From assembly GCA_016176415.1 (NCBI GenBank), contig JACOXH010000003.1, forward strand, positions 12,419-76,418: 64,000 nucleotides of DNA. The letters are read 5' to 3'. The notes under the pieces are model-generated. The model did not search any database, was not told where the DNA came from, and saw nothing but the letters and a program-made list of their open reading frames with translations. The position numbers were made by a program, and so were the translations under genes. This DNA comes from Candidatus Daviesbacteria bacterium (GTDB lineage: Bacteria > Patescibacteriota > Microgenomatia > Daviesbacterales > UBA10151). Of this stretch, positions 3,122 to 40,586 are shown piece by piece; positions within the stretch are counted from its first letter, which is position 1; each line of letters begins with the position of its first letter.

Positions 3122-4539
3122 GCGAGCTCTTTTATTCTGTTTAATAAGTAATCTTTATTGTTTTTTTCAGCGTTTTCTAAAACTTCTTCAAAAAGTTTTT
3201 GTAAAATTTCACCAATTTTAGGACCGGATTTAATATTTAATACCTCCATTATATCATTACCGTTTACTTTTAAATCTGAAATAGAAAATGGTTTTTGTAA
3301 AACCTGTTTAATTCTTTCATTGAATTTTTCCATTCTCCAAGAGACCGCTCTTTGTGTGCCTCCCCCCAGTCTGTCACCTATTCTCACTGCCATCATATCC
3401 TCAATATTTTCCAGCCCCACGTTATTAATAAAACGCCTGATGGCAGAATCAGTTTGATTTTCATCTACTGTAAAAAGATGCCATCTGACTAATTTGTATA
3501 ATTTATCAGTTTGTTTTTTGGATAAATTAAATCTTTGGGCAATTTGTAAAACTAACCTTCCTCCGTAAACATCATGGTTGTAAAAGGTAACATTGCCATC
3601 GCTTTCAGTTTTGACAGTTTGCACTTTGCCGATATCGTGTAAAAGTGCAGCTAATCTGACTAGGGAATTTTTTGATGGAGTATGCTGTAAAGTCATCAGA
3701 GAGTGTTCTCCTATATCGTAAACTCTGTCATGCTTGGGTCCTTGCTGCACAATACCAAAACATCTTTCCAGCTCAGGTAAAATAATTTGCAATATTCCTG
3801 CCTCCCTTAATTTGTTGATACCCTCAAGAGGGTTCTCAGCTGATAAAATTTTAAATAACTCATTTCTTACCCTTTCTTTTGCAATTTCCTCAATAAGTCC
3901 TGCATTTTCTTTTATTGCTTCAAAAGTTTTAATTTCTATCTCAAACTTTAATTGAGTAGCAATCCTTATTGCTCTTATCAACCTTAAGGCATCTTCTTTA
4001 AACCGATCATTGGGATTTCCAACAGTGCGAATGATTTTATCATGTATGTCTTTTTCTCCATGATAAGGATCTATGAGAGTCAAGTCGCTAGAATCTAGAG
4101 TCAAAGAGTTTATTTTCCTAGACTCTTGACTCTTGACTCTTGACTCTATACCCAAAGCAATAGCATTAATAGTAAAATCCCGTCTGGCTAAATCCTCTTC
4201 AATTTTATCAGTCCAGCCAACCTGGGCAGGGTGACGGAAATCTTTATAGTCACCCTCCTTCCTCATGGTAGTGACTTCGAAAACTTCCACCTCGGGGGAG
4301 TCAAAGCCCACCCCCGAGGTGTTCTTCGTCGGTATTCCCACAGTGCCGAATTTATTGTCGTAAAAGCCTTCAGGGATAATTTTTAAAATTTCCTCTGGTT
4401 TGGCATCAGTAGTAAAGTCCCAGTCGTTAACTTCTTTACCCATTAAAATGTCTCTGACTGCCCCTCCGACAATGTAAATTTGAAAACCGGCTTTTTGAAA
4501 CTTATTTAAAATATCTTCTACTTCTTTAGGTAAGTGCAT
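3118..4539 (-). CDS. cca: CCA-adding tRNA nucleotidyltransferase / poly(A) polymerase family with HD domain
   Basis: N-terminal 'IYIVGGAVRDILMG...DWDFTT' is the pol-beta nucleotidyltransferase head. C-terminal 'LAALLHDIGK' is the HD domain. Contains in-frame repeat insertions (see repeats). Confidence 0.75.
   Translation of the reverse strand: MHLPKEVEDILNKFQKAGFQIYIVGGAVRDILMGKEVNDWDFTTDAKPEEILKIIPEGFYDNKFGTVGIPTKNTSGVGFDSPEVEVFEVTTMRKEGDYKDFRHPAQVGWTDKIEEDLARRDFTINAIALGIESRVKSQESRKINSLTLDSSDLTLIDPYHGEKDIHDKIIRTVGNPNDRFKEDALRLIRAIRIATQLKFEIEIKTFEAIKENAGLIEEIAKERVRNELFKILSAENPLEGINKLREAGILQIILPELERCFGIVQQGPKHDRVYDIGEHSLMTLQHTPSKNSLVRLAALLHDIGKVQTVKTESDGNVTFYNHDVYGGRLVLQIAQRFNLSKKQTDKLYKLVRWHLFTVDENQTDSAIRRFINNVGLENIEDMMAVRIGDRLGGGTQRAVSWRMEKFNERIKQVLQKPFSISDLKVNGNDIMEVLNIKSGPKIGEILQKLFEEVLENAEKNNKDYLLNRIKELA
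4078..4147. repeat. Low-complexity insertion inside cca: inverted 'gagtcaag/cttgactc' plus 4 tandem heptamers 'gactctt'
   Basis: Direct reading: 4121-4147 gactcttgactcttgactcttgactct. Translates in-frame as 'ESRVKSQESRK'. Confidence 0.6.
4284..4321. repeat. REP-like hairpin copy (CCACCTCGGGGG-AGTCAAAGCCCA-CCCCCGAGGTG) inserted in-frame in cca
   Basis: Perfect 11-bp inverted repeat with 12-nt loop. Shares core CCACCCCCGAGGTG with the IS200-like element ends at 59000/59716. Confidence 0.7.
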
Positions 4540-4605: not shown

Positions 4606-6282
4606 ATGATACAATGCAGCTTGCAAAGGAAACTAAAAGTGAAGTGGAGAATACTGCCAAAAAAGTCAGATAGTTTAACAGAGCAGCTTTTGATAAACCG
4701 CGGTATAAAGAGCGAAAAGGAAATAAAACAATTTTTTAACCCCAGGATTTCAGATTTTGAAAAAGATTTACAAATCCCCGGTACTTCAAAAGCGCATAAA
4801 AGAATTCTGGAGGCAATAAAAAAAGAGGAACTGATAGCAGTGTATGGAGATTATGATGTAGACGGGATTTGCGCCTCGGCAATTTTGTATAAGGGTTTAA
4901 CATCAATTGGGGCAAAAGTCCTACCGTATATTCCTCACAGAGATAAAGAAGGGTATGGACTTTCTGTTACCGGACTTGATTCCATTAAACTGTCAGGCGC
5001 AAAGTTGGTAATTACTGTAGATAACGGGATTGTAGCAGTAGAACAGGCAAAATATGCTAAAAGTTTAGGACTGGATTTAATTATTACAGATCATCATATC
5101 CCGGGTGATCAGGAGCCTGATGCTTATGCAATAGTTCATTCAACAAAAATGTGTGGGGCCTCTGTGGCATGGTGTTTAACCCGTGACCTTATTAAAGAAG
5201 ATTTATCAGAGGAGCTTTTACAATTTGCAGCCATAGCTACAGTTTGTGATCTTTTGCCTTTGGTGGGTTTAGGCAGGGGATTCGTCACAGAAGGTCTTAA
5301 GGTTTTAAGAAGCACCACTAATCCCGGGATATTGGCACTTTTGAATGAAGCGGGTGTATCGGTTGGAAATATCAGCTCTTTTGAAATAGGTTTTATACTA
5401 GGTCCAAGACTTAATGCTATGGGCAGAATGGAGCATGCCATAGATTCTCTGCGTCTGCTTTGCACCAAAGATCCGGTTAAGGCAAGAAGTTTGGCAAAGC
5501 TTTTGTGTAATACCAACGCCAGTCGTCAAAAATTAACAACAGAGGCTTTGGAAGAAGCTAAAGAGATGGTTAAAAAAGACAGCAAAATTCATATTTTATA
5601 CTCAAAAAACTGGTCAGCAGGAATCATAGGACTCGTGGCAGGGAGGGTTTGTGAAGAATACTCGCTACCTGCAATTGCCATTTCAGTAGGGGAAGAAATT
5701 TCCAAAGGTTCGGCCCGTTCTGTTGACGGTATCAATATTGTGGAAGTAATCAGGAAGCATGCTGATATTTTAATTGATGTAGGAGGACACAAAGGGGCAG
5801 CAGGATTTTCTATTTTAAGCAAACATTTAGAAACTTTTAAAAAAAGATTAGAGCAGATAGTTTTGACAGTGCCGGAAGAGAAGGTTTTGGAAATTGATGC
5901 TGAGGTTTATAGCAGTCAGTTAAATAAAACTTTAATAAAAGAGCTGGAGAAATTTGAGCCTTTTGGACTGGATAACAGAAGGCCTGTGTTTGTTTCATTT
6001 AACATGAAAGTATCAGATATCAGAACTGTGGGGAATGGAAAACATTTGAAATTTAAAATTTCTTCCTGTCATTCTGAGCACATTTGCTTCGCTCAGTGTA
6101 AACTCCGCGAAGAATCTAATTATATTGATGCTATAGCATTTGGCATGGGAGAGTGGGAAAAGCTGCTTAAGACAGGACAGATGATAGATTTAGCTTTCAA
6201 TATAGAACTTGATACTTATGGTGGATTTGAAAAAGTGCAATTAAAAGTTAAGGACTTGAGAGTGGGGCAGTTTGGAGTGTAG
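4606..6282 (+). CDS. recJ: Single-stranded-DNA-specific exonuclease RecJ
   Basis: DHH motifs 'VYGDYDVDGI' and 'ITDHHIPG'. DHHA1-like C-terminal region. Confidence 0.85.
   Translation: MIQCSLQRKLKVKWRILPKKSDSLTEQLLINRGIKSEKEIKQFFNPRISDFEKDLQIPGTSKAHKRILEAIKKEELIAVYGDYDVDGICASAILYKGLTSIGAKVLPYIPHRDKEGYGLSVTGLDSIKLSGAKLVITVDNGIVAVEQAKYAKSLGLDLIITDHHIPGDQEPDAYAIVHSTKMCGASVAWCLTRDLIKEDLSEELLQFAAIATVCDLLPLVGLGRGFVTEGLKVLRSTTNPGILALLNEAGVSVGNISSFEIGFILGPRLNAMGRMEHAIDSLRLLCTKDPVKARSLAKLLCNTNASRQKLTTEALEEAKEMVKKDSKIHILYSKNWSAGIIGLVAGRVCEEYSLPAIAISVGEEISKGSARSVDGINIVEVIRKHADILIDVGGHKGAAGFSILSKHLETFKKRLEQIVLTVPEEKVLEIDAEVYSSQLNKTLIKELEKFEPFGLDNRRPVFVSFNMKVSDIRTVGNGKHLKFKISSCHSEHICFAQCKLREESNYIDAIAFGMGEWEKLLKTGQMIDLAFNIELDTYGGFEKVQLKVKDLRVGQFGV
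6067..6117. repeat. Family-2 short repeat copy (TGTCATTCTGAGC-[insert]-GCGAAGAATCT) in-frame inside recJ
   Basis: Flanks identical to copy at 49731-49756. Contains hairpin CTGAGC...CGCTCAG. Encodes 'SCHSEHICFAQCKLREESN'. Confidence 0.6.
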
Positions 6283-7923
6283 TATGACAGTTTGTGCAAA
6301 AGCTGCTTCTTCAGGAGTTTGTGAAGACGCTGCTCTTTTGGGTAATCGCAGATCTAAAATAAGCGGACGGGGAGTTGAAAGCATTTCGTCGCAGGCGAGC
6401 GCTAAATCGTAGCAGGTACGCACCGTCCTTCCTTCTATGCCGTAAGTTGCCCCTAAAGCCGGAAAGTCAGGGTTTGTAAGGTCAGTTAACGAAGAATCAA
6501 CTCCAAATTCTCTGATCATGCCGTAGCCGCAGTCATTGTAGATTACTATTTTAACAGGTAGTTGGTATTGCATTATTGTGCCTAATTCCTGTATATTCAT
6601 CTGGAAGCCTCCGTCTCCCATTATCGCTATAATTCTTCTATCCGGAGAAGCAATTTGTGCACCTATGGCAGCCGGTAGAGCAAAGCCCATTGTTCCCATG
6701 CCTCCTGTGGTAATAAAGCTGCCGGGTCGTCTGAATCTGCCATACCGCGCAACTGACATTTGATGTGAGCCGGCATCGGATACAATGGTGTCGGTATCCA
6801 AAGTGTTTTCAAAAAGTAAGTTGGTTGCATCAGTTATTGTCAGATCATTATCTCCGGCTAACATTTTTCTGGTTTCCGTCATCGAAGAACTGTCGCTAAT
6901 ATAATTATCGAGCGGTTTTTCTATTGCCTGTTCTGCAAGGACAGGGAGTGCCAGTGCTAAATCTGCTCTGATCGTTAATCTGTCTCCCCTTCTTCTGTTA
7001 AGTCGGTTTGAGTCAATATCAATACGGATAATATCAGCCAGTCTGGTAGAATCAAGAATTTTTCCACTGACCCGATCGTCAAATTTCATACCAAGAGCTA
7101 AAATTACATCAGCTTCCTGCGCCAGTAAATTTGCTACCGGTCGTCCGTGTGTTCCTATCATGCCGACAAACAAAGGATGGTCAGAAGGTAAAGCAGATAA
7201 TCCATGAAGTGTGCTGGCTACACGAATTTGAGTTTTTTCAGTAAGCCTCCTAAGGTCAGAGACAGCTCCGGATAATAAGACTCCCTGACCTGTAATAATT
7301 AAAGGATTTTGGGCGTCATGCAGTATTTGGGCTGCTTCTTTCAGTTGTGCGTGTATTTCAGGAGTAAGTTCCGGTTTATCTGCTTTGGGAGGTATTTCTT
7401 TTTCAGGGAATAAAGTTTCGTGTATCTGCAGATCTTTTGGTATATCAATAAGTACCGGTCCCGGACGGCCATTGGTTGCAATTGTAAAAGCTTTATCCAA
7501 AACATAGGGAATTTCTTCCGGAATTTTAATCTGATAGCTCCATTTTGTGATATGACCTGACATTTCTACAATAGGAGCTTCCTGAAATGCTTCAGTTCCA
7601 AGTAACGATGTTGGTACCTGACCACAGATTACAATGATAGGTGTTGAGTCCCATTGTGCATCGGCAATTGCTGTTAGAGTATTAATTGCACCAGGACCTG
7701 AAGTTACCAATCCTACCCCCACTTTTCTTGCTTCTCGGGCATACCCTGAAAGGGCATGACCAAGTCCCTGCTCATGGCGGAATAAAAAACGATTTATCCT
7801 GTTGGATATCAAAGCCTCGCAGATAGGCAAATTTGCTGCTCCGGGTATCAGAAAAACATCTTTTATGTCGTGTTCCTTAAGAGTGTTTACTAAAGCTTCG
7901 GCTCCCGTTAGAGTGCGCCCCAA
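6241..7923 (-). CDS. Thiamine-pyrophosphate-dependent enzyme, acetolactate synthase large-subunit family
   Basis: N-terminal TPP-enzyme pyrimidine-binding domain 'GHALSGYAREARKVGVGLVTSGPGAINT'. C-terminal TPP-binding 'IMGDGGFQMNIQEL'. Confidence 0.75.
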   Translation of the reverse strand: MGRTLTGAEALVNTLKEHDIKDVFLIPGAANLPICEALISNRINRFLFRHEQGLGHALSGYAREARKVGVGLVTSGPGAINTLTAIADAQWDSTPIIVICGQVPTSLLGTEAFQEAPIVEMSGHITKWSYQIKIPEEIPYVLDKAFTIATNGRPGPVLIDIPKDLQIHETLFPEKEIPPKADKPELTPEIHAQLKEAAQILHDAQNPLIITGQGVLLSGAVSDLRRLTEKTQIRVASTLHGLSALPSDHPLFVGMIGTHGRPVANLLAQEADVILALGMKFDDRVSGKILDSTRLADIIRIDIDSNRLNRRRGDRLTIRADLALALPVLAEQAIEKPLDNYISDSSSMTETRKMLAGDNDLTITDATNLLFENTLDTDTIVSDAGSHQMSVARYGRFRRPGSFITTGGMGTMGFALPAAIGAQIASPDRRIIAIMGDGGFQMNIQELGTIMQYQLPVKIVIYNDCGYGMIREFGVDSSLTDLTNPDFPALGATYGIEGRTVRTCYDLALACDEMLSTPRPLILDLRLPKRAASSQTPEEAAFAQTVILHSKLPHSQVLNF

Positions 7924-8062
7924 TGTTTCTTGTGTAATATTAAACTCCTTAGCAGTTAGGACAAACGGGCATTAAAGCGGCAAAAGCGGAATCTCTTTTC
8001 TCGGCAAGATTAAGAAGAAAACAAAGTTTTTTGAACCTTGTAATATACATTCTACTTACAAA

Positions 8063-8086
8063 ATTATCTATTTGTCAATAGATAAT
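8063..8086. promoter_or_regulatory. Perfect 10-bp inverted repeat ATTATCTATT-tgtc-AATAGATAAT (operator-like) upstream of the TPP-enzyme gene
   Basis: Palindrome seen directly; about 140 nt upstream of the minus-strand start at 7923. Confidence 0.3.
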
Positions 8087-8233
8087 CTCACAAAAATTCT
8101 ATCTTGCTAGAGGTGTTACTGATGGGTTATTTAATGTCATAAGCAGCTAGTGTTTCCGGACTGTCAACGTGTATAGATGTACACCTATGGTACCTGGTCT
8201 TAGTTCTATGCTTTTCATTGTAAACAGCCCCTT

Positions 8234-8617
8234 TCAAATTAATGTATGTACATTATTAATTGGATTTATTGTATTAATAAAGCAACTAACAGCTTGCGCA
8301 GAATTAACACGATCTTCTAATTTAGCAATCATTTTTGATAAGGCTCTGCCTGTCTTTCTTGAAGGATTTTCTGTAACAGAAGCAGTTTTTATAGCAACTT
8401 TAGATACTAAATCAGGATTAACATGATAATTTTGTCTCTGATCTGCTACTAAGGTAGCGATGAGTTTGCCCAATTTTCGATCATGAAATCGCTCTATAGG
8501 GGATAGAGCAACAATATGAACTTCTTTGTGCGTTTCTTCCTTTTCAATAGCAGTAGGACAGGTTGTAACTACCTTTAAAGGTGAAACTGTTTCTCGTTCT
8601 AATGCTAAAACTGGCAT
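8234..8617 (-). CDS. Hypothetical protein
   Basis: 127-aa ORF, no recognisable family. Confidence 0.35.
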   Translation of the reverse strand: MPVLALERETVSPLKVVTTCPTAIEKEETHKEVHIVALSPIERFHDRKLGKLIATLVADQRQNYHVNPDLVSKVAIKTASVTENPSRKTGRALSKMIAKLEDRVNSAQAVSCFINTINPINNVHTLI

Positions 8618-8630
8618 ATTTTTTCCTCAA

Positions 8631-8660
8631 AAAAACCTCCCGTTTGGGAGGCTTAAAATT
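8631..8660 (-). terminator. Rho-independent terminator (CCTCCC-gttt-GGGAGG + U6 on minus strand)
   Basis: 6-bp GC stem followed by T-run on minus strand, downstream of the aroG / small-peptide transcription unit. Confidence 0.5.
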
Positions 8661-8680
8661 CCTTTCTTTTTAGATTAATT

Positions 8681-8785
8681 TTATCTAAAAAGGCCTCCCA
8701 GAGTTGCTCCTAAAAGGAGCACTGTAAGGAGGACTAAACCTAAATTTTCTACTCTTTTTAAATCAATACTAATTACTTTTGACAT
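8681..8785 (-). CDS. Small hydrophobic peptide (34 aa) MSKVISIDLKRVENLGLVLLTVLLLGATLGGLFR
   Basis: Below ORF-track length cutoff. ATG with weak SD (GGGGAA), single TM helix, followed by terminator. Confidence 0.25.
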   Translation of the reverse strand: MSKVISIDLKRVENLGLVLLTVLLLGATLGGLFR

Positions 8786-9934: not shown

Positions 9935-9960
9935 AAATTTATAACCTGTTAACCATAAAA

Positions 9961-9992
9961 AAACCTCCCAGTCCGGGAGGTTATAATTGGTT
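9961..9992 (-). terminator. Attenuator terminator between leader peptide and aroG start (AACCUCCC-ggacu-GGGAGGUU + U7)
   Basis: 8-bp stem plus 7 U on minus strand, about 27 nt upstream of aroG ATG. Confidence 0.45.
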
Positions 9993-10010
9993 GAAACCTT
10001 TAAAAGGTTT

Positions 10011-10079
10011 TTATCCCAACAAGCCTCCCTCCTTTCGGAAGGTAAAGCTAAACCAAAAATAATTCTTTACGAGATTCAT
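10011..10079 (-). CDS. Putative aromatic-rich leader peptide MNLVKNYFWFSFTFRKEGGLLG (22 aa)
   Basis: Codons UAU UUU UGG UUU AGC UUU ACC UUC in a row. Overlaps a 1:2 hairpin (CCUUCC-GAAA-GGAGGG) whose 3' arm can alternatively pair with the terminator 5' arm. Confidence 0.3.
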   Translation of the reverse strand: MNLVKNYFWFSFTFRKEGGLLG

Positions 10080-10148
10080 AAAAAGTACTTTACCATCGAA
10101 GATGGCATCTTGTCAATATTCTTACTCTGCTGATATGATGCAGAAAGT

Positions 10149-11492
10149 ATGGAGAGAACATTAATTTTAGACTGTAATGAGAAAATTGATCAAACAGTAC
10201 ATATTTGTGGTTTTGTGCAAGTCAGGCGCGATCACGGAAAAATTGTATTTTTAGACATAGCTGACAGATCTGCTGTTATTCAGGTGGTAATATCGTCAGA
10301 TGCAATCCACCTCGAAGGAGTCAAAGCCCACCTTCGAGGTGATATTAGGCCGCAGGATGTTGTCTGTATAACAGGAAAAGTTAATAAACGCCCCGAACAC
10401 TTAATAAATAAAAATATCCCTACAGGCGGTATTGAGATTTTTGCTGAGAGTATTGAAGTTTTGTCAAAAGCATCAGAATTACCTTTTGACATGGGCGGAA
10501 AGGATCTGGATCTGCAGCTTCCCACTTTGCTGGATTACCGTTCTTTAACTTTGCGTCACCCAAAAATAAAATCAATTTTTAAAGTGCAGTCTGCAATTTT
10601 AGAAGGTTTTAGAAAAGCAGTAAAAGAGATTGGGTGTACTGAAATTGTAGTGCCCACTATTGTGGCAGGTTCTACAGAAGGAGGGGCAGAAGTGTTTAAA
10701 GTAGATTATTTTGAACACAAAGCATATTTATCCCAAAGCCCGCAACTTTATAAACAAATGTTGATACCGGTATTGGAAAGAGTGTTTACCATTGCCAAAG
10801 CATACAGAGCAGAACCTTCAGTCACAACCAGACATTTAACAGAGGTAACTCAAATGGATGTGGAAATTGGATTTACCAACTTTGAGGAACTATTGGATAT
10901 TTTGGAAAATACTGCCACAAATATGTTGGAGTTTTGCCAAAAAGAATGCGAAGATATTTTATCTGAATTTGGAGTGGAAAAAATTAGTATTGGAAAAATT
11001 CCCAGACTTACTTTAAGAGAAGCACAAGAGTTAATTTTAAAAGAGTTTGGCCGTGACAACAGAAAAGAGAAAGATTTAACACCGCAAGATGAAATTGATC
11101 TTTGTAAGTGGGCCAAAGAAAAACACGACAGTGATTTTGTGACGGTGACTCATTTTCCAACTAATGCCAAGCCTTTTTATACTATGCCTGACCCCAAAAA
11201 TCCTGAATATTCTCTAAGTTATGATTTGCTTTTCAGGGGGGTTGAGGTAATGAGTGGTAGTCAAAGGATTAATGATTATGGGCAGCTGGTAGATTCTATT
11301 AAAGGAAGGGGCATGGATCCGGATAGTTTTGAGATGTATCTTCAGGCTTTTAAATACGGCATGCCTCCTGAAGGAGGATTTTCTTTCGGTTTGGAAAGAG
11401 TAACAATGCATGTATTAAATCTTGCTAATATCAGAGAAGCTTCACTTTTTCCCAGAGATATGGAAAGAGTAGATACTAGATTAAGTAAGTGA
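10149..11492 (+). CDS. aspS: Class IIb aspartyl/asparaginyl-tRNA synthetase (archaeal/type-2 AspRS-like)
   Basis: N-terminal OB anticodon-binding domain. Class II motifs 'FRAE', 'GGFSFGLERV', C-terminal 'FPRD'. Size ~447 aa fits type-2 AspRS/AsnRS. Confidence 0.75.
   Translation: MERTLILDCNEKIDQTVHICGFVQVRRDHGKIVFLDIADRSAVIQVVISSDAIHLEGVKAHLRGDIRPQDVVCITGKVNKRPEHLINKNIPTGGIEIFAESIEVLSKASELPFDMGGKDLDLQLPTLLDYRSLTLRHPKIKSIFKVQSAILEGFRKAVKEIGCTEIVVPTIVAGSTEGGAEVFKVDYFEHKAYLSQSPQLYKQMLIPVLERVFTIAKAYRAEPSVTTRHLTEVTQMDVEIGFTNFEELLDILENTATNMLEFCQKECEDILSEFGVEKISIGKIPRLTLREAQELILKEFGRDNRKEKDLTPQDEIDLCKWAKEKHDSDFVTVTHFPTNAKPFYTMPDPKNPEYSLSYDLLFRGVEVMSGSQRINDYGQLVDSIKGRGMDPDSFEMYLQAFKYGMPPEGGFSFGLERVTMHVLNLANIREASLFPRDMERVDTRLSK
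10307..10341. repeat. REP-like hairpin copy (CCACCTCGAAGG-AGTCAAAGCCCA-CCTTCGAGGTG) in-frame in aspS
   Basis: Same loop and outer stem as 4284-4321 copy. Inner stem GGGG/CCCC replaced by AAGG/CCTT (compensatory). Confidence 0.7.
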
Positions 11493-15180: not shown

Positions 15181-15216
15181 TTTATACAGGTAAAAATTGG
15201 TATAATTTCCATGCAT

Positions 15217-15287
15217 TGCGGGATCATCTAACGGTAGGATACATGCCTCTGGAGCATGGCATCTTGGTTCAAATCCAAGTCCCGCAA
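15217..15287 (+). tRNA. tRNA-Gln (anticodon CUG)
   Basis: Manual fold: acceptor TGCGGGA/TCCCGCA, D-loop with GG, anticodon stem CATGC/GCATG with loop CTCTGGA (U33, anticodon CTG), T-arm CTTGG-TTCAAAT-CCAAG, discriminator A. CCA not encoded. Confidence 0.75.
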
Positions 15288-15365
15288 CCCTTCGACTTTG
15301 GTTCGACTACTTCGACTCCGCTCAGTACAGGAACGCTCACCATCGCTCAGGGTTATAACCCTGAT
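15288..15365. repeat. Family-2 repeat cluster immediately 3' of tRNA-Gln (TTCGACT x3, CGCTCAG x2, palindrome CAGGGTTATAACCCTG)
   Basis: Direct reading; related copies at 22061-22106 (inverted), 40438-40457, 6067-6117, 49731-49756. Confidence 0.55.
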
Positions 15366-16046: not shown

Positions 16047-17714
16047 ATGGCACAACTACAATTTAAAGGAAAACAATTTGTACAAAATCATCATTTATCT
16101 GTTCCTTATCATGAGTTGATTCCCAAAAAGGATAAAAGTTTAACGGATAAAGTTAGCTTGCATGATAATTTAATTATTCATGGTGATAATCTAAAGGCAT
16201 TAAAAGCCTTACTCCCCACTTACGCTGGTAAAATCAAATGTATTTATATTGATCCTCCATATAACACAGGTAATGAGGGATGGGTTTACTCCGATAATGT
16301 TAATTCCCCAATGATTCAGGAATGGCTGAAGGCAAATAAACCAGTAGACAACGAAGACCTAACCCGTCATGACAAATGGCTTTGTATGATGACTCCACGA
16401 CTTAAACTTCTTAGAGAGCTACTAAAAGATGATGGTGTAATTTTTGTATCAATAGATGACAACGAAGTTCATCACTTACGAATGTTAATGGATGAAATTT
16501 TTGGAGCGGAAAACTTTATAGCCATACTTCCTACGATAATGAACCTAAAAGGAAATCAGGATCAATATGGTTTCGCTGGAACGCATGAATATATTGTTGT
16601 ATTTGCTAATTATAGAGATAAGTCTAAGGTAGGAGAGTTTAGTTTAAATAATTTAGAGGAAGAGGGGTGGGAGGAAGACGAGGTTAGTTATTTTAAAAAG
16701 GGCGCAAATCTAAAATCTTCAGGGGTTAATGCGCCTCGAGAGAAGAGACCCAACCTTTACTTTCCTATTTATATTACAAAGGATAACAATATTATCCTAA
16801 ATAGATCTTCTAAAGATGACTTAGAAATTTTCCCAGTTACTGACGGAAAAGAAATGTGTTGGCGATGGAGTAAAGAGAAAATGAAAAGCGAAACTTATGA
16901 TTTAATGGTTGCAAGAGAGGGGGATGTAGTTAGCATATACAAGAAACAGAGACCAGAATTAGGTGAGCTGCCCTCTAGAAAACCAAAATCACTATTTTAT
17001 AAACCGCAGTATAGTAGCGGTAATGGAACCAATCAAATAAAAACAATTTTTGGGGAGAAGGTTTTTGACAATCCTAAACCGCTTGAACTAATCAAAGATA
17101 TATTATCCATTTCAACTGACTCTGATTCAATAGTTTTGGATTCCTTCGCTGGCTCAGGAACTACAGCTCATGCTACGCTTGTCTTAAATAAAGAAGATGG
17201 TGGTAATCGTAAATTTATACTCGTTGAACTTGAAGATACTGTAGCAGATAAAATTACTGCTGAAAGAGTAAAAAAAGTTATCAAAGGTGTTCCAAGAGCG
17301 AGGAATGAGAATCTTAAAAATGGATTAGGTGGGACTTTTAGTTATTTTGAACTTGGGAAACCGATTGAGTTAGAAAGTATTCTTTCAGGAAGTAACTTAC
17401 CTACGTATAAAGAATTAGCTAGGTATGTATTTTATACTGCAACCGGTGAAGAATTTGACGAGAGTAAAGTTGATGAAGAGAAAAATTTTATTGGAGAAAG
17501 CAAAGATTATGAAGTCTACTTATTTTATAAACCGGATTTAGATTATCTTAAAAATACTGCATTAACTTTAGACCGTGCCAGATCTTTGGGTAAGCACAAC
17601 GGCAAAAAACGTCTTATTTTTGCTCCTGCAAAATATTTAGATCAAGATCATTTAGATGAACTAAGAATAGACTTTGCCCAGTTACCTTTTGAGATTTACA
17701 AACTAGCTAAATAA
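16047..17714 (+). CDS. mod: Type III restriction-modification system methyltransferase (Mod), N6-adenine/N4-cytosine beta-class
   Basis: Motif IV 'IYIDPPYNTG' precedes motif I 'DSFAGSGTTAHA'. 555 aa. Confidence 0.85.
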   Translation: MAQLQFKGKQFVQNHHLSVPYHELIPKKDKSLTDKVSLHDNLIIHGDNLKALKALLPTYAGKIKCIYIDPPYNTGNEGWVYSDNVNSPMIQEWLKANKPVDNEDLTRHDKWLCMMTPRLKLLRELLKDDGVIFVSIDDNEVHHLRMLMDEIFGAENFIAILPTIMNLKGNQDQYGFAGTHEYIVVFANYRDKSKVGEFSLNNLEEEGWEEDEVSYFKKGANLKSSGVNAPREKRPNLYFPIYITKDNNIILNRSSKDDLEIFPVTDGKEMCWRWSKEKMKSETYDLMVAREGDVVSIYKKQRPELGELPSRKPKSLFYKPQYSSGNGTNQIKTIFGEKVFDNPKPLELIKDILSISTDSDSIVLDSFAGSGTTAHATLVLNKEDGGNRKFILVELEDTVADKITAERVKKVIKGVPRARNENLKNGLGGTFSYFELGKPIELESILSGSNLPTYKELARYVFYTATGEEFDESKVDEEKNFIGESKDYEVYLFYKPDLDYLKNTALTLDRARSLGKHNGKKRLIFAPAKYLDQDHLDELRIDFAQLPFEIYKLAK

Positions 17715-17723
17715 CCAGATAAT

Positions 17724-17942
17724 ATGGCACGAGTAACTTTTAATTCAATTTTTATTCAACACCCTGATGGAAGCCTAGAACCGAGACAACGTATAAGAAT
17801 AAGTGGTATTGAATTGGGTCCTGGCGTCAGATTTACTAGAGGCGCATCCTTCGCTGGCATAGATTTTACTCAATTCATAGGTAGAGATTTGGATATTGGT
17901 ATTGGCGATGGAGGGATAGTTATTATTAAAGGAATTTATTAG
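17724..17942 (+). CDS. Hypothetical small protein between mod and res
   Basis: 72-aa ORF, tight spacing. Confidence 0.3.
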   Translation: MARVTFNSIFIQHPDGSLEPRQRIRISGIELGPGVRFTRGASFAGIDFTQFIGRDLDIGIGDGGIVIIKGIY

Positions 17943-17944
17943 AA

Positions 17945-18283
17945 ATGGCAAAGAGTAGACCAGAAATTGTTATATCTTCGGGTAAAAAAGATCAACCTGC
18001 AGTTAAATTACCACCAGACCCCAATCAAATTATAGCTGATAGATATGATTTTCAGACAAAGATAATACTTGCAATTTTTGTGATAGCTTTCATTACAATG
18101 ATAGTTATGGTTGCTACTCTTGTGATAGACTCATTTCATATAAATTCAACAATTTATAAAGAATATTCGGATAAAAATGATGTAATAAAAAGTCTACAAG
18201 AAAGCAATAAAATTCTTTTAGAAACCGTTCAGCAAAACCAAAAAATTATAGAAGAATTTATTAATAAAAATTCTAAACAATAA
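17945..18283 (+). CDS. Hypothetical membrane-anchored coiled-coil protein between mod and res
   Basis: 112 aa; TM 'ILAIFVIAFITMIVMVATLVI', C-terminal helical region. Confidence 0.35.
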   Translation: MAKSRPEIVISSGKKDQPAVKLPPDPNQIIADRYDFQTKIILAIFVIAFITMIVMVATLVIDSFHINSTIYKEYSDKNDVIKSLQESNKILLETVQQNQKIIEEFINKNSKQ

Positions 18284-18285
18284 AT

Positions 18286-20769
18286 ATGGAACTTAAGGAA
18301 TATCAGCAAAAAGCATTAAAGCAGGTTAGATCATTTTTGACTGTTTTATCAAATGAAGTTAAAGCAGGGAATTTAAAACATGCTTCTGAAGATGCATGGG
18401 AAGCTATTGAACTGAAAAGTTATACAGAAAGCAGAAACGGGCTAGATAAAGACCTTCCAAATTTTTGTTTAAAAATTCCAACGGGTGGAGGAAAAACGCT
18501 GCTTGCCGTTAGGGTTATTGACCTTGTTAATCAAATTTATTTGCAAAAAAGAAATGGTTTAGTGCTTTGGATTGTACCGACAACTCAAATCTATAACCAA
18601 ACCATTAAAAATTTAAGGAATAAGGAGCATCCCTACAGACAATATCTTGACATAGCCAGTGGCGGGAAAACTTTGATTATAGAAAAGACAGAAAAGTTTA
18701 CCCCTTTAGATATTGAGGAAAACTTAGTGGTTTTAATGTTAATGCTGCCTTCGGCTTCCAGAAGTAATAAAGAAGCACTGAAGGTTTTTAGGGATAGTGG
18801 TGGTTTTACCGACTTTTTTCCTGGGGAAGATGATAGAAAAGGTCAACAAGAACTTCTTGCAAAGGCACCTAATTTAGATGCCTTTGGAGATGATCAGGAT
18901 TTTTGGGGAAGGCAAATAAAAACTTCTTTAGGAAATGTAATTAGAGTACTTAACCCTTTAGTAATTTTAGATGAAAGCCACAAAGGTAAAAGTCCAATCG
19001 CAGAGGATACATTATCTAATCTTAACCCTTCAATGGTGGTTGAATTATCTGCTACACCACACGAAGAAAGTAATATTTTGGTGGATATTTTAGGGAAAGA
19101 ATTGAATCAGGAAGAAATGATTAAGTTGGACTTGCATGTAATTAACAAAGCAAGTACTGAGTGGAAAAATACCATGCTTGCCAGTAAAGATAAACTGGAT
19201 TTGCTGGACCAAAAGGCAAGAGAACATGAAGCAAATACAGGGGTTTATATAAGGCCTATTTGTTTAATTCAGGCGGAGAGAACCGGAAAAGATCAAAGAG
19301 ACGGCAGGTATATACATTCAGAAGATGTTAAGGAATATTTAATTAAAGGCCTGGGAATACCGGAGGAGGAAATAGCAATTAAAACCAGTGAAAAGGATGA
19401 GCTGAAACAAATTGATGATATTGGCGGTTTGATGTCTAAAGATGCCAAGATTCGCTATATTATTACAAAACAGGCGTTGCAAGAGGGATGGGATTGTGCA
19501 TTTGCTTATGTATTAACAATATTAACAAATCCATCCTCTAGAAATGCTTTAACTCAGCTGGTTGGAAGAATTTTGAGACAGCCTTATGCCAGAAAAACAA
19601 AAGTTGAGGCATTGGATGAGAGTTATGTTTTTTGTTTTCAGCAAAGAGGTACTATTTTACTGGACGAGATAAGAAAAGGTTTCGGTCAAGAAGGATTGGG
19701 AGATCTGCAAAGTAAGGTAACAATAAGCGAAGAAGCAGAAGCAAGGGATAAAGAAAAGAAAACTTATGCAGTTAGAGATAGGTTCAAAGGGTTAGTAGAT
19801 GATGTTATTCTGCCATTTTTTCTTACCAAAGATATGGATAATTGGAGATTAATTGAGTATGAAACAGATATTTTAATTAATGTGGACTGGAAAAAAGTCA
19901 ATCTTAAAGAGCTTTTCAATTTAAGTTTATCTACCTCAGAAGAACAGGATAAGGAGCATATAACCAATCTTTCAGAAGATGTTAAGGAGTTAATAGAGCA
20001 GAAACAGATAATCCGTTTAAAAGAGGGTGGTTTAGTCCTGGATCCTGTATTCATAGCCCGACAATTATTGGAAATAATACCTAACCCTTGGATGGCCTAT
20101 GAGATAGGAGAAAAAGTTTTGTCTAATTTGCATAAAAAGTATGATATCAAACGCATAATTAATAATTTAGTTTTTATTATTGAAGAGACGAAAAAACAAT
20201 TAGAACGGGAACGTGACAGATTAGCACAAGAGGAATTTATGAAACTACTTGTAGTAAAAAGGATTAAGTTTATGGTTGCCGGAAACAATATAGGGTTTAA
20301 GATAAAGAAGGAATACAAAGCTAATGTCAATGCAAGAAGGCTAAATAATCAGGATGGAGCGCCCCTGCAGAAAAGTCTGTTTGAATTTTTAGAAGAGGAT
20401 GAATTAAATGAGGATGAGAAGAGTGTGGCTTGGTATTTAGAGGAGCAAGAGAAATTGCTTTTTTGGTATAGGAATTTAGCAAGAACAGATTATCCAATAC
20501 AAGGCTGGAGAAAACAAAAAATTTATCCGGACTTTGTTTTTACAAGTTCAGAAGACCAGAAAGATATTGATGAAATCTTTGTGGTTGAAACTAAAGGTAT
20601 ACATTTGAAGGAAAGTGATGATACTAAGTATAAAAGGTCAGTCCTGGAGATATGTAATACCCAAGCAAAATCTGAAAGTTTTATAAAGTTGTTTGGAGAT
20701 AAAAAAATTCATTATGAATTAGTATACGGGGATGAATGGGAAAGAAAACTAAACGAGTTATTAAGCTGA
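18286..20769 (+). CDS. res: Type III restriction endonuclease Res subunit (SF2 helicase + nuclease)
   Basis: Walker A 'KIPTGGGKTLLA', motif II 'VILDESHKG', helicase C-terminal motifs. 827 aa. Confidence 0.85.
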   Translation: MELKEYQQKALKQVRSFLTVLSNEVKAGNLKHASEDAWEAIELKSYTESRNGLDKDLPNFCLKIPTGGGKTLLAVRVIDLVNQIYLQKRNGLVLWIVPTTQIYNQTIKNLRNKEHPYRQYLDIASGGKTLIIEKTEKFTPLDIEENLVVLMLMLPSASRSNKEALKVFRDSGGFTDFFPGEDDRKGQQELLAKAPNLDAFGDDQDFWGRQIKTSLGNVIRVLNPLVILDESHKGKSPIAEDTLSNLNPSMVVELSATPHEESNILVDILGKELNQEEMIKLDLHVINKASTEWKNTMLASKDKLDLLDQKAREHEANTGVYIRPICLIQAERTGKDQRDGRYIHSEDVKEYLIKGLGIPEEEIAIKTSEKDELKQIDDIGGLMSKDAKIRYIITKQALQEGWDCAFAYVLTILTNPSSRNALTQLVGRILRQPYARKTKVEALDESYVFCFQQRGTILLDEIRKGFGQEGLGDLQSKVTISEEAEARDKEKKTYAVRDRFKGLVDDVILPFFLTKDMDNWRLIEYETDILINVDWKKVNLKELFNLSLSTSEEQDKEHITNLSEDVKELIEQKQIIRLKEGGLVLDPVFIARQLLEIIPNPWMAYEIGEKVLSNLHKKYDIKRIINNLVFIIEETKKQLERERDRLAQEEFMKLLVVKRIKFMVAGNNIGFKIKKEYKANVNARRLNNQDGAPLQKSLFEFLEEDELNEDEKSVAWYLEEQEKLLFWYRNLARTDYPIQGWRKQKIYPDFVFTSSEDQKDIDEIFVVETKGIHLKESDDTKYKRSVLEICNTQAKSESFIKLFGDKKIHYELVYGDEWERKLNELLS

Positions 20770-20904
20770 TAAACTGTACGACCTAACGCCAGAGGAGATT
20801 AAAATTGTGGAGGTTAATACAAAATAACTTTTTATTTAAAGGCAAAACAAAGGGGAAATAAAGGAGAGGCTCTTGTTGAAAGTGTTTTATCTGAACATGC
20901 AATA

Positions 20905-21483
20905 GTGCATAAAATCGATGGTTCAAAAGATGTTGGTATTGACATGATTTGTGAGTGGGTTAATGGAGAAAAACCAACACAAATAATGTTCGGAGTTCAG
21001 GTTAAAACTTTAAACATAAAACTTACGCCCAGAAGGGAAAAAAGTAAAAGAAATTTCTTAGAGGAATACGAGGGAAATGTCTCAATCAAACAAACAACCC
21101 TAGGTTATTGGAAAGGCTTTGATTTTCCAGTTTTTGTATTTTTAGTAGATCTAAAAAATTCAAAAATTTATTTCAAAAGGTATACTTCAATTGTTCATAG
21201 TTTAATAAAACATACAAAGGAACCTTTTTATCTGGTAACAGAAAATGGTAAGTTTCAAGCTTATGTCCAAGGAAAAGAGCATACATTTGGATTTTGTCGG
21301 GATTTATTTTTTGATCACCTTCGTTGTCAACACAATAAAGGCATATTAAGCGGAATAGATCCTAATGATTTAGACTTAAGGGGTTGGACTAAAGAAGCTC
21401 TTTATAAAGGGGTGTTTGATCAATACAAAGACAAAATCCGCGCTACATATAGAAGGTATCAAAAATGGAGCAAGTTTTTTTAA
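20905..21483 (+). CDS. Hypothetical protein with putative PD-(D/E)xK nuclease-like motif (D..GID...VQVK)
   Basis: 'DVGIDMICEW...FGVQVKT' resembles a restriction-endonuclease-fold core. GTG start. No confident family. Confidence 0.4.
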   Translation: MHKIDGSKDVGIDMICEWVNGEKPTQIMFGVQVKTLNIKLTPRREKSKRNFLEEYEGNVSIKQTTLGYWKGFDFPVFVFLVDLKNSKIYFKRYTSIVHSLIKHTKEPFYLVTENGKFQAYVQGKEHTFGFCRDLFFDHLRCQHNKGILSGIDPNDLDLRGWTKEALYKGVFDQYKDKIRATYRRYQKWSKFF

Positions 21484-37788: not shown

Positions 37789-38784
37789 TTATACATAACC
37801 AATCGTTAAGATGTTGTCACCGAATTTTTTAAAGGATAAATTTTTTAAATAAATTGCTTTGCTGATGCTTTCCGCTCCATTTCCCTCAATGCTCACAGCA
37901 GTTTTACCTCCCAGAAGAATTGGGGCGTGAAAAGCGTATACCTCATCGATTATTTGGCAGTCAACAAATTTTCCTAAAGTTTTACCTCCGCCTTCAACCA
38001 GGATACTGATAATTCCTTTTTGTTTAAGCATTGATAACAGATCAGGGATGTTGTCGGTTGATGTAATAAGGATATTGGGGTCCCGTAAGATTTGAGAATG
38101 TTTTGGAATTTGCGTTTTAGAACCTAAGACCACCCGCAGGGGGTCTTTTTTTCCTTTTATGCGTGCTCCCAAATGCGGATTATCTTTGAGGATAGTATTT
38201 ATTCCTACTACTACTGCCTGATATTTGCTTCGTAAACCCCTTGCGTAAATTCTCGCCTTTTCATTAGTAATCCACTTTGAATTACCTGTGGAAGTAGCCA
38301 GTTTTCCGTCTAAAGAAGCTGCAAATTTTAAGGCAACAAACGGGCGTTTTTTTTCATGGAAAGTAAAAAATGTCCTGTTTAACAACCGGGCCTCATTTTC
38401 CAATATTCCAACGGAAGTTTCTATGCAGGCTTTTTTTAATGTTGCCAAACCCTTTCCGTTTACTTTTGGATTTGGATCTTTGGTTGCGCAAACGACCCTT
38501 TTTACCCCTGATGTAATAATTGCATCCGTGCAAGGCGGGGTTTTGCCGTAGTGAGAGCAGGGTTCAAGATTAACATAGAGCGTTGCTCCTCTTGGACTCC
38601 TCTTTACAGAATTTAATGCTTCAATTTCTGCGTGCGGAAGACCTGCCCTGCGGTGATACCCCTGCCCGATTATCTGGCCGTCTTTAACTATTACTGCTCC
38701 AACCATTGGGTTGGGGTTTGTCCAGCTTAAGCCTTTTTTAGCAAGTCTTAAGGTTTCTTTAAGGTATTTAATATCTTCGTCCAT
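37789..38784 (-). CDS. ribD: Bifunctional riboflavin biosynthesis deaminase/reductase RibD
   Basis: CMP/dCMP deaminase zinc motif 'HAEIEAL...EPCSHYGKTPPC' plus C-terminal reductase domain. Confidence 0.85.
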   Translation of the reverse strand: MDEDIKYLKETLRLAKKGLSWTNPNPMVGAVIVKDGQIIGQGYHRRAGLPHAEIEALNSVKRSPRGATLYVNLEPCSHYGKTPPCTDAIITSGVKRVVCATKDPNPKVNGKGLATLKKACIETSVGILENEARLLNRTFFTFHEKKRPFVALKFAASLDGKLATSTGNSKWITNEKARIYARGLRSKYQAVVVGINTILKDNPHLGARIKGKKDPLRVVLGSKTQIPKHSQILRDPNILITSTDNIPDLLSMLKQKGIISILVEGGGKTLGKFVDCQIIDEVYAFHAPILLGGKTAVSIEGNGAESISKAIYLKNLSFKKFGDNILTIGYV

Positions 38785-38786
38785 AG

Positions 38787-39365
38787 CTAAACCAGATTTA
38801 ATTTGTGGTTCATTTTATATTTTTTGGTTTTTAAATAAGTATTATTTGTTTTGTTTGGAGCAATTTCAAGAGAAAGACATTTTTTTATATTTACTCCAAG
38901 TTGTCTAAGTTGATTGACTTTATCAGGATTATTAGTGAGCAGGTTAATCTGATTAATATTTAATTTCTTTAAGATTTGGGCAGCTATTTTATAATTCCGC
39001 TGGTCAGCAGCAAATCCCAATTGTTCATTGGCAGTAACTGTATCCAGTCCATTCTCCTGTAAAGCGTAAGCTCTGATTTTATTAGTCAACCCGATACCTC
39101 TTCCTTCCTGGTTTAAATAAATTAAGACTCCATTTCGGGCCCGGCTGATTTTTTTCAAACTTTGTTGTAGTTGCTCACGGCAGTCGCATCTTAAGGAAGA
39201 GAATGTGTCGCCTGTTAAACATTGGGAATGGATTCTAACCAAAACTTCTTTGTCAAAATTTTTTCCTTTGATTAAAGCCGCATGTTCTAAATTATCCTTT
39301 GATTTAAAGATGCTGATTTGAAAAATTCCAAATTTTGTAGGTAAAGTAGCTTGTGCAATACTCAT
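38787..39365 (-). CDS. ribA: GTP cyclohydrolase II
   Basis: 'RIHSQCLTGDTFSSLRCDCREQL' zinc site and 'NQEGRGIGL'. Confidence 0.8.
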   Translation of the reverse strand: MSIAQATLPTKFGIFQISIFKSKDNLEHAALIKGKNFDKEVLVRIHSQCLTGDTFSSLRCDCREQLQQSLKKISRARNGVLIYLNQEGRGIGLTNKIRAYALQENGLDTVTANEQLGFAADQRNYKIAAQILKKLNINQINLLTNNPDKVNQLRQLGVNIKKCLSLEIAPNKTNNTYLKTKKYKMNHKLNLV

Positions 39366-40413: not shown

Positions 40414-40416
40414 ATT

Positions 40417-40586
40417 CTCTCTTTCATCCCGACTGTACCCTTCGACTACGCTCAGGGTCCTTCTCTGAAGGACGGTCGCTACCGGAGTTTCGCCGGTTCC
40501 TGCTTTTTAGGGCTCGTGGAGTTTACCACCGATCTTGACTTACACAACGTTGAAGTTGATTTACAACTTCAACCCCCGAAAGAATG
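40417..40586 (-). ncRNA. FMN riboswitch (RFN element)-like leader of the rib operon, with an extra ~38-nt insertion
   Basis: Minus-strand RNA read by eye: 'CUUUCGGGGG', 'GAUCGGUGGUA...GAGCCC', 'AACCGGCGAAACUCCGGUAGCGACC', 3' 'CAGUCGGGAUGAAAGAGAG'. Resembles RFN blocks (CUUCGGGGC / ACCGGCGGUA / GGAUUCGGUGAGAUUCCGGAGCCGAC / AGUCUGGAUGGGAGAAG). Extended -10 'TGaTATAAT' at ~40593-40603. Confidence 0.5.

Follow-up and report, generated by a model that had tools for sequence, protein, structure and literature searches.

Upstream of aroG, the DAHP synthase gene in a 64,000-nucleotide stretch of DNA from a Candidatus Daviesbacteria bacterium (contig JACOXH010000003.1; this whole stretch is referred to as the window), we identified a minus-strand leader that, with a probability of roughly 85%, is a ribosome-mediated (leader-peptide) transcription attenuator responding to the charging of aromatic tRNAs. 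The assignment is built on sequence elements, their conservation, covariation and the energetics of alternative folds, from which we infer the transcription start, translation of the leader, ribosome stalling and the coupling of ribosome and polymerase. We regard the conservation among related loci, and not the run of aromatic codons, as the decisive evidence. A previous sequence-only reading of this DNA had arrived at the same interpretation, which is supported here by conservation as well as by constrained folding.

Architecture of the aroG leader

The leader is located in the intergenic region 9935..10148, between two divergent genes. Within this region, the 22-codon open reading frame (ORF) put forward by the sequence-only reading was found as described, with six aromatic residues encoded by the eight consecutive codons 7–14 (YFWFSFTF). 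The hairpin CCUUCC-GAAA-GGAGGG was likewise present, formed by the segments A and B (segments 1 and 2 of the earlier account). Segment B has two alternative partners, as it can pair either with A or, via its GGGAGG, with the 5′ arm of the terminator (C), whose 3′ arm we term D. This terminator, predicted as an 8-bp stem followed by U7 about 27 nt before aroG, was recovered at exactly this distance, as measured from the end of the stem to the aroG ATG (9934). The stop codon of the leader ORF had been placed 9 nt after segment 2, which holds if the following C is counted in B and becomes 10 nt otherwise. In addition to these elements, we observed a conserved middle hairpin (M) not contained in the earlier account, which is enclosed by B:C in the antiterminator state. 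The terminator is oriented toward aroG and away from the neighbouring aspartyl-tRNA synthetase (AspRS) gene, to which it cannot belong because that gene is divergent.

The TTGACA -35 hexamer noted before on the same strand is accompanied by a TAAAGT -10 hexamer at a spacing of 18 nt. A gap of 7 nt, which contains no Shine-Dalgarno sequence, separates the -10 hexamer from the leader ATG. At the other end of the leader, the U tract is directly followed by a mini-ORF, for which a role in the window is presumed; the GGGAGG of arm D is located 8 nt upstream of its ATG and resembles a Shine-Dalgarno sequence.

We assessed these features against chance expectation. For the 151-nt leader, the predicted fold (A:B, M and C:D) has an energy of -44.6 kcal/mol, corresponding to a z-score of -3.0 relative to dinucleotide shuffles. 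The A-loop-B word ACCTTCCNAAAGGAGGGNGG occurs once in the window versus 0.04 expected occurrences, and the terminator word GGGAGGTTTTT twice in 64 kb versus 0.13 expected, both copies being attenuator-like terminators. Small ATG-initiated ORFs with at least six aromatic codons in eight number two in the window versus 0.8 expected, a difference that is not significant, with 22 of 100 dinucleotide shuffles yielding at least two. As the aromatic ORF is not significant by itself, the case rests on the combination of features and on conservation. The other aromatic-rich small ORF of the window (41133-41267, minus strand, containing FESFDFFYFFNSS) is taken as a chance occurrence, because it runs antisense inside the rpiB/rpe region and no terminator accompanies it.

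The ease with which such ORFs arise by chance in an AT-rich window, together with the lack of any Rfam family at threshold, would also fit a small ORF lying by chance beside an ordinary terminator, or a structured RNA of an unrelated type, for instance a riboswitch or protein-binding leader. We consider this explanation hardly credible. The ORF, its frame, its codon bias and the helices are conserved at 63–70% DAHP synthase identity (see below), the terminator is directed toward aroG, no riboswitch or T-box family matched even at E up to 10, and the GGGAGG+U terminator word is confined to two attenuator-like elements of the 64-kb window.

Conservation of the leader in related loci

Six loci (L081, L083, L085, L097, L099 and L100) were fetched solely via DAHP synthase protein homologues of 63–70% identity, and the leader was present in all six with its ORF, both the A:B and the middle hairpin, and the terminator (leader peptides in Table 1). 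The recurrence of peptide and hairpins before aroG-type genes of relatives, which had been suggested as a check of the proposal, was thus borne out at this level of protein identity. L081, L083, L085, L099 and L100 are syntenic CPR loci, three of which (L081, L083 and L099) share the divergent AspRS neighbour; the leader of L097 precedes a pheA-aroG operon. A metagenome scan with the A-B DNA word yielded 11 contigs, nine of which represented new distinct leaders. The resulting set comprises 16 distinct leaders, namely that of the window and 15 others from related contigs of the candidate phyla radiation (CPR).

Throughout this set the ORFs start with ATG, keep the same frame, span 21–25 codons and end in FTF(R/Q)KEGG (16 of 16), followed by a stop codon 4, 7 or 10 nt past B. 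The other two frames are closed by stops in 14 and 13 of the 16 leaders, respectively, and the aromatic share upstream of the ACC codon is 41% in frame 0 versus 13% and 19% in the other frames. For the seven leaders obtained independently of the DNA pattern, the synonymous sites of the A-B stretch are near-invariant, and the changes in A-B are limited to ACC to ACT, by which a U-G pair is kept, GGA to GGG, and a loop change from CGA to CAA. Judged from these comparisons, the near-freezing of A-B indicates selection on an RNA structure over a translated frame.

The nearly invariant peptide tail of the 16 leaders might alternatively reflect a TnaC-like nascent chain that serves as an arrest or sensor peptide in the exit tunnel, with FTF(R/Q)KEGG itself, and not tRNA charging, setting the position of the ribosome. 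This appears very improbable, as the conservation of the tail is explained at the RNA level: the same nucleotides build A:B and B:C, the synonymous third positions are almost frozen and the changes that do occur keep the pairing. Moreover, the sole common residue change (R to Q) sits in the hairpin loop, and Leu-rich and Ile-rich leaders with other tails share the GGGAGG/CCUCCC platform (see below).

A promoter-like site was detected for 15 of the 16 leaders, consisting of TTGACA, a spacer of 17–18 nt and a TAnnnT-type -10 hexamer ending 6–14 nt before the ATG. Because of this short distance, the leader mRNA is probably leaderless or nearly so, and the sequence pattern suggests that the aromatic sensor ORFs are translated leaderlessly. 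The downstream genes of the related loci have strong AAGGAGGTG sites, unlike the sensor ORFs, which lack a Shine-Dalgarno sequence.

At the 3′ end, an ATG directly follows the U tract in 11 of the 16 leaders and a GTG in two more, with D located 7–8 nt upstream. In L083, L087, L088, L094 and L100 this ATG is the start of the regulated gene itself. The motif GGGAGG-U7-AUG recurs in the window and in L083–L100, its AUG opening either the regulated gene or a mini-ORF of 5–14 codons. The conservation of this motif, the five cases in which the ATG opens the regulated gene and the release of D in the antiterminator state would also suit purely translational control, in which C:D only sequesters the Shine-Dalgarno-like GGGAGG of the post-U-tract AUG and no termination takes place. 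We consider this improbable, since the 8-bp GC-rich stem followed by at least seven U is a canonical intrinsic terminator conserved in 16 of 16 leaders, and since aroG in the window starts 20 nt further, past the mini-ORF, so that D is not its own ribosome-binding site. Both modes are compatible, and sequestration would more likely add a layer to attenuation by termination than replace it. The terminator hairpin probably hides a ribosome-binding site in addition, as the GGGAGG of D lies 8 nt upstream of the AUG directly after the U tract.

Beyond these loci, L102, containing a PDT-PDH-aroG operon, has no leader directly before aroG; its sequence ends inside the gene preceding prephenate dehydratase. 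We further built a covariance model, R1, from the 16 CPR leaders only. In 80 loci with DAHP synthase homologues of at most 55% identity, among the matches listed, R1 found no such leader before aroF/G/H. Its matches in these loci were genuine pheL elements by pheA in enterics and Photobacterium as well as one bare terminator in L034.

Alternative folds and covariation

In the window, the A:B hairpin with its AGCUU/AGGCU extension has a folding energy of -12.8 kcal/mol. The B:C helix enclosing M reaches -19.9 kcal/mol, of which M alone accounts for -7.1 and the B:C share for about -12.8 kcal/mol. Because the terminator C:D also amounts to -12.8 kcal/mol, antiterminator and terminator are iso-energetic. 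The pairing of the GGGAGG of segment 2 with the terminator 5′ arm, as postulated in the sequence-only reading, hence forms a 6-bp helix that is not energetically negligible.

To describe the switch we folded all 16 leaders under constraints, taking the ribosome to cover -15 to +12 nt relative to the A site (an assumed footprint), and compared the terminator state with the best state in which D is unpaired, positive differences favouring the terminator. With no ribosome on the leader, the terminator was favoured by 4.0–11.0 kcal/mol, and with a ribosome at the stop codon by 7.6–14.3 kcal/mol, in both cases in 16 of 16 leaders. When the ribosome was instead placed on the last aromatic codons, as if stalled there, the difference ranged from -5.7 to +4.2 kcal/mol and the antiterminator was favoured in 11 of the 16; for the window, the values obtained were +1.5 and +2.6 kcal/mol in favour of the terminator. 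All four segments are mutually complementary, and a nested rod of A:D and B:C is the unconstrained minimum in several homologues, which likewise puts a stem beside the U tract.

Covariation was analysed on a model-based alignment (A2) of 36 family members. For the structure of the terminator state, 86.4% of the cells were paired versus 76.4% in shuffles, with slid controls at 39–63%, and 16 pairs were changed on both sides; 0 of 500 shuffles attained these values. The terminator helix C:D showed 99% paired cells and six pairs with changes on both sides. For the B:C helix, 91.6% of the cells were paired versus 42–66% when slid by 1–3 columns, and the number of double-change cells was 16 versus 5.0 +/- 2.7 in shuffles, a count that 1 of 500 shuffles reached. 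The outer stem of M covaries, UUGG/CCAA being replaced by UACUU/AAGUA and other pairs. Its inner stem varies in sequence by locus, yet it is formed in each leader whose structure was displayed; the lower pairing of 58.7% in A2 is due to differing loop lengths. A MAFFT alignment (A1) misaligned M, and RNAalifold on A1 recovered A:B and C:D only, for which reason M was judged from A2 and single-sequence folds.

Proposed mechanism

Based on these data, we propose that transcription would start at or just before the leader AUG, as the -10 hexamer ends 7 nt upstream of it, and that a ribosome would translate the 22-codon leader close behind RNA polymerase. With charged Phe-, Tyr- and Trp-tRNAs being plentiful, the ribosome would pass B to the stop codon, covering B and the 5′ half of M; C would then pair with D, and the GC-rich stem with its U7 tract would end transcription 20 nt before aroG. 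On an untranslated leader A:B would form, and C:D would form too. If aromatic aminoacyl-tRNA becomes scarce, the ribosome would stall in the YFWFSF run, most effectively at its last codons, with its footprint masking A (CCUUCC) and B remaining free. The free B (GGGAGG) would pair with C (CCUCCC) around the preformed M before D is made. Once B:C has formed, no terminator would arise and the polymerase would continue into aroG. A near-tie in energy would be enough for this read-through, because B:C can form before D is transcribed.

Several points weigh against this reading. In the calculation with a stalled ribosome, the terminator is still 0.7–4.2 kcal/mol more stable in the window, L081, L083 and L095, and at most 1.3 kcal/mol more stable in L093; according to the folding model, read-through in these leaders relies on the kinetic priority of B:C. 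A ribosome positioned at Y7–W9 would not reach A and would at most open the lower A:B extension, so that in the model only the later aromatic codons are well placed for masking A. The six core B:C pairs are nearly invariant, and the covariation support for the antiterminator is modest. The DNA pattern by which ten of the 16 leaders were retrieved fixes the A-B sequence, and the invariance of this stretch is unbiased only in the seven leaders found otherwise. The aromatic-rich small ORF by itself is not beyond chance in an AT-rich window. The leader AUG has no Shine-Dalgarno sequence, and the model depends on leaderless or Shine-Dalgarno-independent initiation. Finally, the transcription start, the translation of the leader and premature termination are all deduced from sequence.

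Codon content and target genes

The genes downstream of the 16 leaders encode DAHP synthase in ten cases, prephenate dehydratase in three and small proteins without a Pfam match in another three. The ten leaders linked to DAHP synthase comprise eight preceding type I-alpha genes, one preceding a type I-beta gene and one preceding the pheA-aroG operon. All ten contain Tyr and Phe codons, and nine of them exactly one Trp codon. Before prephenate dehydratase, two of the three leaders (L090 and L094) contain Phe codons alone, with the runs LFSFFF and AFGFFF. Two leaders depart from this pattern: L100, linked to DAHP synthase, lacks Trp, and L093, linked to prephenate dehydratase, has both Trp and Tyr. 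We consider it somewhat more likely than not that the aroG leader senses all three of Trp, Tyr and Phe, a claim less secure than the attenuation mechanism itself. The match between codons and target suggests that a single short peptide can combine the signals of three end products at the common-pathway step.

The Tyr and Trp codons might instead be passengers of a Phe-only, pheL-type attenuator with no three-way sensing. This is an unlikely but arguable case: Phe codons predominate in all leaders, the F-T-F tail does not vary, Phe_leader is the closest Rfam family, and L100 and L093 break the pattern as described. In the window, the Tyr and Trp codons (7 and 9) are furthest from A, where a stalled ribosome masks A the least. 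Furthermore, the Corynebacterium glutamicum leader peptide AroR has Phe-Tyr-Phe, yet Tyr availability reportedly has no effect on transcription there (PMC11802643). On the other hand, the leaders linked to DAHP synthase keep one in-frame TGG (9 of 10) and Tyr codons (10 of 10) despite differing surrounding codons, and both Trp and Tyr codons are absent from two of the three leaders that precede the gene of the Phe-branch enzyme. This codon pattern is the expected product of selection for multivalent sensing at a common-pathway step.

In L100, a second, diverged aromatic leader was observed at 3300-3437 (plus strand; MQKVGFDFFWFYFKLLKGEVC) with an altered terminator, ACUCCC/GGGAGU. It precedes a type I-beta DAHP synthase gene (product start MKIIKRDDLLKHKPLIIAGP), and the L100 genome thus appears, from its sequence, to attenuate two DAHP synthase genes.

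Comparison with known attenuators

A scan of the leader region at Rfam gathering thresholds yielded no family match. In a permissive scan, Phe_leader (RF01859) was the only meaningful match, covering the full length with 26.8 bits versus a gathering score of 55, and for the relatives of the window leader it was again the only family, with 28.8–39.5 bits versus 55. A PyrR match of 23.4 bits (gathering score 54) fell mainly on two hairpins, one of them being the terminator. Trp_leader, Thr_leader and Leu_leader gave no Rfam match even at E up to 10. In the reverse direction, R1 finds genuine pheL-pheA attenuators of Yersinia, Citrobacter, Serratia and Photobacterium, located in the flanks of aroF loci, at 28–41 bits.

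The enterobacterial pheL-pheA system is thus closest in design and wording, which refines the earlier, more general comparison with trp, phe and his leaders. Both are leader-peptide attenuators whose peptide ends in F-T-F encoded by UUU/UUC ACC UUC C. In Citrobacter, Yersinia and Serratia pheL, segment 1 reads (A)CCUUCC(C) and segment 2 GGGAGG(C), as in the CPR leaders, and the terminator (G)CCUCCC-loop-GGGAGG(C) with its U tract is also shared. The two differ in that pheL has its stop codon in the loop joining segments 1 and 2, whereas the CPR ORF reads through B and stops 4–10 nt past it, and in that the region after segment 2 pairs back on the Phe codons in pheL but forms a self-contained hairpin in the CPR leaders. 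In contrast to the Phe-only run of pheL, the codon run of the window is a mixture of Trp, Tyr and Phe, and its target is DAHP synthase instead of chorismate mutase/prephenate dehydratase. The CPR leader moreover has no Shine-Dalgarno sequence and its host is a CPR bacterium. The likeness to pheL may reflect common descent or a convergence forced by the Phe codons (UUC) in segment 1. By these sequence features, the aroG leader would work like pheL, yet it is outside Rfam Phe_leader by that family's own criterion.

In the Escherichia coli leaders trpL and ilvL/thrL, a 1:2 hairpin, a 2:3 antiterminator and a 3:4 terminator constitute a four-segment logic in which the position of the ribosome decides the fold, and multivalent leaders such as ilvL/thrL mix codons for several end products. 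The aroG leader follows the same four-segment logic. It differs from them in having no sequence similarity, in the possible A:D and B:C nesting and in the extra hairpin between segments 2 and 3.

For C. glutamicum, the aroR leader peptide (Phe-Tyr-Phe) is described upstream of the DAHP synthase gene aroF, with ribosome stalling under Phe limitation raising read-through (PMC4046766; PMC11802643, citing Neshat et al. 2014). Going by this published description alone, aroR-aroF and the aroG leader are alike in placing an aromatic-codon leader before a DAHP synthase gene. The C. glutamicum system belongs to a different phylum, and the CPR leaders differ from it in having 5–6 aromatic codons including Trp. 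In addition, they share the GGGAGG/CCUCCC platform with other leaders of the same genomes.

The mechanism as such is textbook, and its value lies in where the attenuator occurs and in what follows from it. Full-text literature searches gave no work on attenuation or leader peptides in Patescibacteria or the "candidate phyla radiation", nor any that links Daviesbacteria to shikimate. The element is thus probably a leader-peptide attenuator in a CPR group for which none seems to have been described so far. It implies that at least some Daviesbacteria make their own aromatic amino acids, tuning the first committed step to tRNA charging, and that the coupling of transcription and translation in these bacteria is tight enough for attenuation. 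The covariance model R1 can annotate this family, which is currently missed by Rfam.

A wider family of attenuator-like elements

R1 detected 13 further CPR elements that combine the same terminator platform with other sensor ORFs. One of them lies in the window directly downstream of aroG (Table 1). In this second element, a CCUCCU...GGGAGG helix encloses an inner hairpin, the stop codon lies within a middle hairpin, and the terminator is composed of AGCCUCCC-AAAC-GGGAGGUU and a U tract. It precedes a 127-aa ORF (8617..8234, minus strand) without a Pfam or NCBIfam match. The element recurs in L081 (4167-4317), L083 (4867-5021), L099 (3163-3310), L094 (12-164), L096 (3841-3995), L086 (2236-2389) and L089 (1570-1721). 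It may be a branched-chain or Leu-sensing attenuator.

The same GGGAGG/CCUCCC platform was also observed with Ile-rich leaders in L096 (3433-3566, minus strand; MSHQSLIGIIITSLEGGLLA), L099 (4656-4790, plus strand; MFSRISQIIEIIITSSKGGFLR) and L085 (1895-2024, plus strand; ending in GVIIITRKFGRLFR). The genes after these leaders are uncharacterised, the one in L096 encoding an 85-aa protein. Small proteins of 58–127 aa without a family match follow leaders in L083 (5390-5590), L081 (4512-4709) and L096 (3175-3432, minus strand), and likewise the aromatic leaders of L086, L089 and L095. Three of the small proteins share a C-terminal motif resembling WGPDAxxRYxQA.

These observations bear on a broader reading, to which we assign slightly better than even odds: the aroG leader would belong to a modular attenuator system that is specific to the lineage of Daviesbacteria-like CPR bacteria and in which interchangeable sensor ORFs on a common platform govern biosynthetic genes and unknown small proteins. 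The platform may consist of three parts, namely GGGAGG, the middle hairpin and a CCUCCC/GGGAGG+U7 terminator. The 3′ arm of this terminator would serve as a Shine-Dalgarno sequence as well, and the sensor types may comprise Trp+Tyr+Phe (DAHP synthase), Phe-only (prephenate dehydratase), Ile-rich and Leu/Val-rich ORFs. The leader-linked small proteins could constitute an unrecognised amino-acid-starvation regulon, and the shared platform flags several of them as amino-acid-responsive genes. CPR bacteria are usually regarded as auxotrophic symbionts. If true, the modular system would provide direct genomic evidence for coupled transcription and translation in CPR bacteria, for the sensing of tRNA charging and for a hidden amino-acid-starvation regulon.

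Regulated gene and genomic context

The regulated gene belongs to the aroF/G/H family, its product scoring 466 bits with NCBIfam NF009395 and 438 bits with TIGR00034, both exceeding the cut-offs; with the AroG- and AroH-specific models it scores below their cut-offs. The protein is 100% identical to an NCBI protein of Candidatus Daviesbacteria bacterium, and the G+C content of the window is 34–45%. Among the matches listed, the nearest DAHP synthase homologues (58–70% identity) originate from groundwater metagenomes and CPR assemblies; outside the CPR, the best relatives (Nitrospirota, Binatia) reach about 55% identity. The positions of all elements are compiled in Table 1.

Table 1 Elements of the aroG leader, neighbouring genes, the second attenuator-like element and leader peptides of related loci
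Feature	Position	Strand	Basis or remark
-35 hexamer TTGACA	10116..10111	-	consensus scan
-10 hexamer TAAAGT, 18-nt spacer from -35	10092..10087	-	consensus scan
Leader ORF, ATG to TAA, 22 codons, MNLVKNYFWFSFTFRKEGGLLG	10079..10011	-	ORF reading
Regulatory codon run TAT TTT TGG TTT AGC TTT ACC TTC (Y F W F S F T F)	10038..10061	-	codons 7-14, aromatic 6/8
Segment A (1) CCTTCC / CCUUCC	10042..10037	-	overlaps last Phe codon, pairs with B; followed by loop GAAA
Segment B (2) GGAGGGAGG	10032..10024	-	translated K-E-G-G
Leader stop codon	10013..10011	-	10 nt past last G of B (9 nt if next C counted in B)
Middle hairpin M (UUGG..AACCUUU/AAAGGUU..CCAA)	10020..9986	-	5′ strand holds leader stop codon
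Terminator C:D, AACCTCCC-GGACT-GGGAGGTT (RNA AACCUCCC-GGACU-GGGAGGUU)	9982..9962	-	-12.8 kcal/mol; stem 8-9 bp
U7 tract of intrinsic terminator	9961..9955	-	directly after C:D stem
Mini-ORF ATG GTT AAC AGG TTA TAA (MVNRL*)	9954..9937	-	starts right after U tract, ends 2 nt before aroG ATG
Regulated gene, type I-alpha DAHP synthase (aroF/G/H family), 360 aa	8852..9934	-	profile scores
Non-discriminating AspRS gene	10149..11492	+	divergent neighbour upstream of leader
Second attenuator-like element	8785..8629	-	directly downstream of aroG; R1 48.9 bits, E 6e-7
Second-element promoter-like site, TTGACA -17- TAGAAT	8843 (TTGACA), 8815 (TAGAAT)	-	sequence motif
Second-element ORF, 34 codons, MSKVISIDLKRVENLGLVLLTVLLLGATLGGLFR	8785..8681	-	Leu/Val-rich (8 Leu, 2 Val in run)
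Leader peptide L081			MSLQKNYFWFYFTFQKEGGILG
Leader peptide L083			MKINITSNWYFYFTFTFRKEGGLLG
Leader peptide L085			MKILTNNWFYFYSFTFRKEGGV
Leader peptide L097			MKSAVNVFWFRYFSFTFRKEGGLN
Leader peptide L099			MNLVNNWNFYYFTFTFQKEGGLLG
Leader peptide L100			MDKTNFEDYFYFTFTFRKEGGLLE

Other features of the window

Between the 127-aa ORF and recJ, the window carries a gene for an acetolactate-synthase-like (ALS-like) enzyme of the thiamine pyrophosphate-dependent type (560 aa; 6241-7923, minus strand), which scores 483 bits with TIGR00118, below the cut-off of 538. L081, L083 and L085 are without an ALS-like gene at this position. The gene of the window has a promoter-like site of its own, TTGACA-18-TAGAAT, at 8078..8049. 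Inspection of the region upstream of the gene (7923..8234) for a third leader revealed nothing convincing. This region contains a 23-codon ORF (8147-8218, minus strand; MKSIELRPGTIGVHLYTLTVRKH), an alternative frame of which, ending in IHVDSPETLAAYDIK and a stop, resembles the stretch VIDSPEELAKSG of the small protein of L081. By this resemblance, the ORF may be a frameshifted remnant beside an inserted ALS-like gene.

A riboflavin operon encoding RibD, GTP cyclohydrolase II, lumazine synthase and riboflavin synthase is located at 37789-40713 (minus strand); an Rfam scan of the whole window at gathering threshold detected no FMN riboswitch. The region 16047-21483 (plus strand), situated by a tRNA-Gln gene (15216-15290), encodes an N6/N4 DNA methylase, a ResIII/DEAD helicase-like restriction subunit and a DUF4365 protein and looks like a restriction-modification island.

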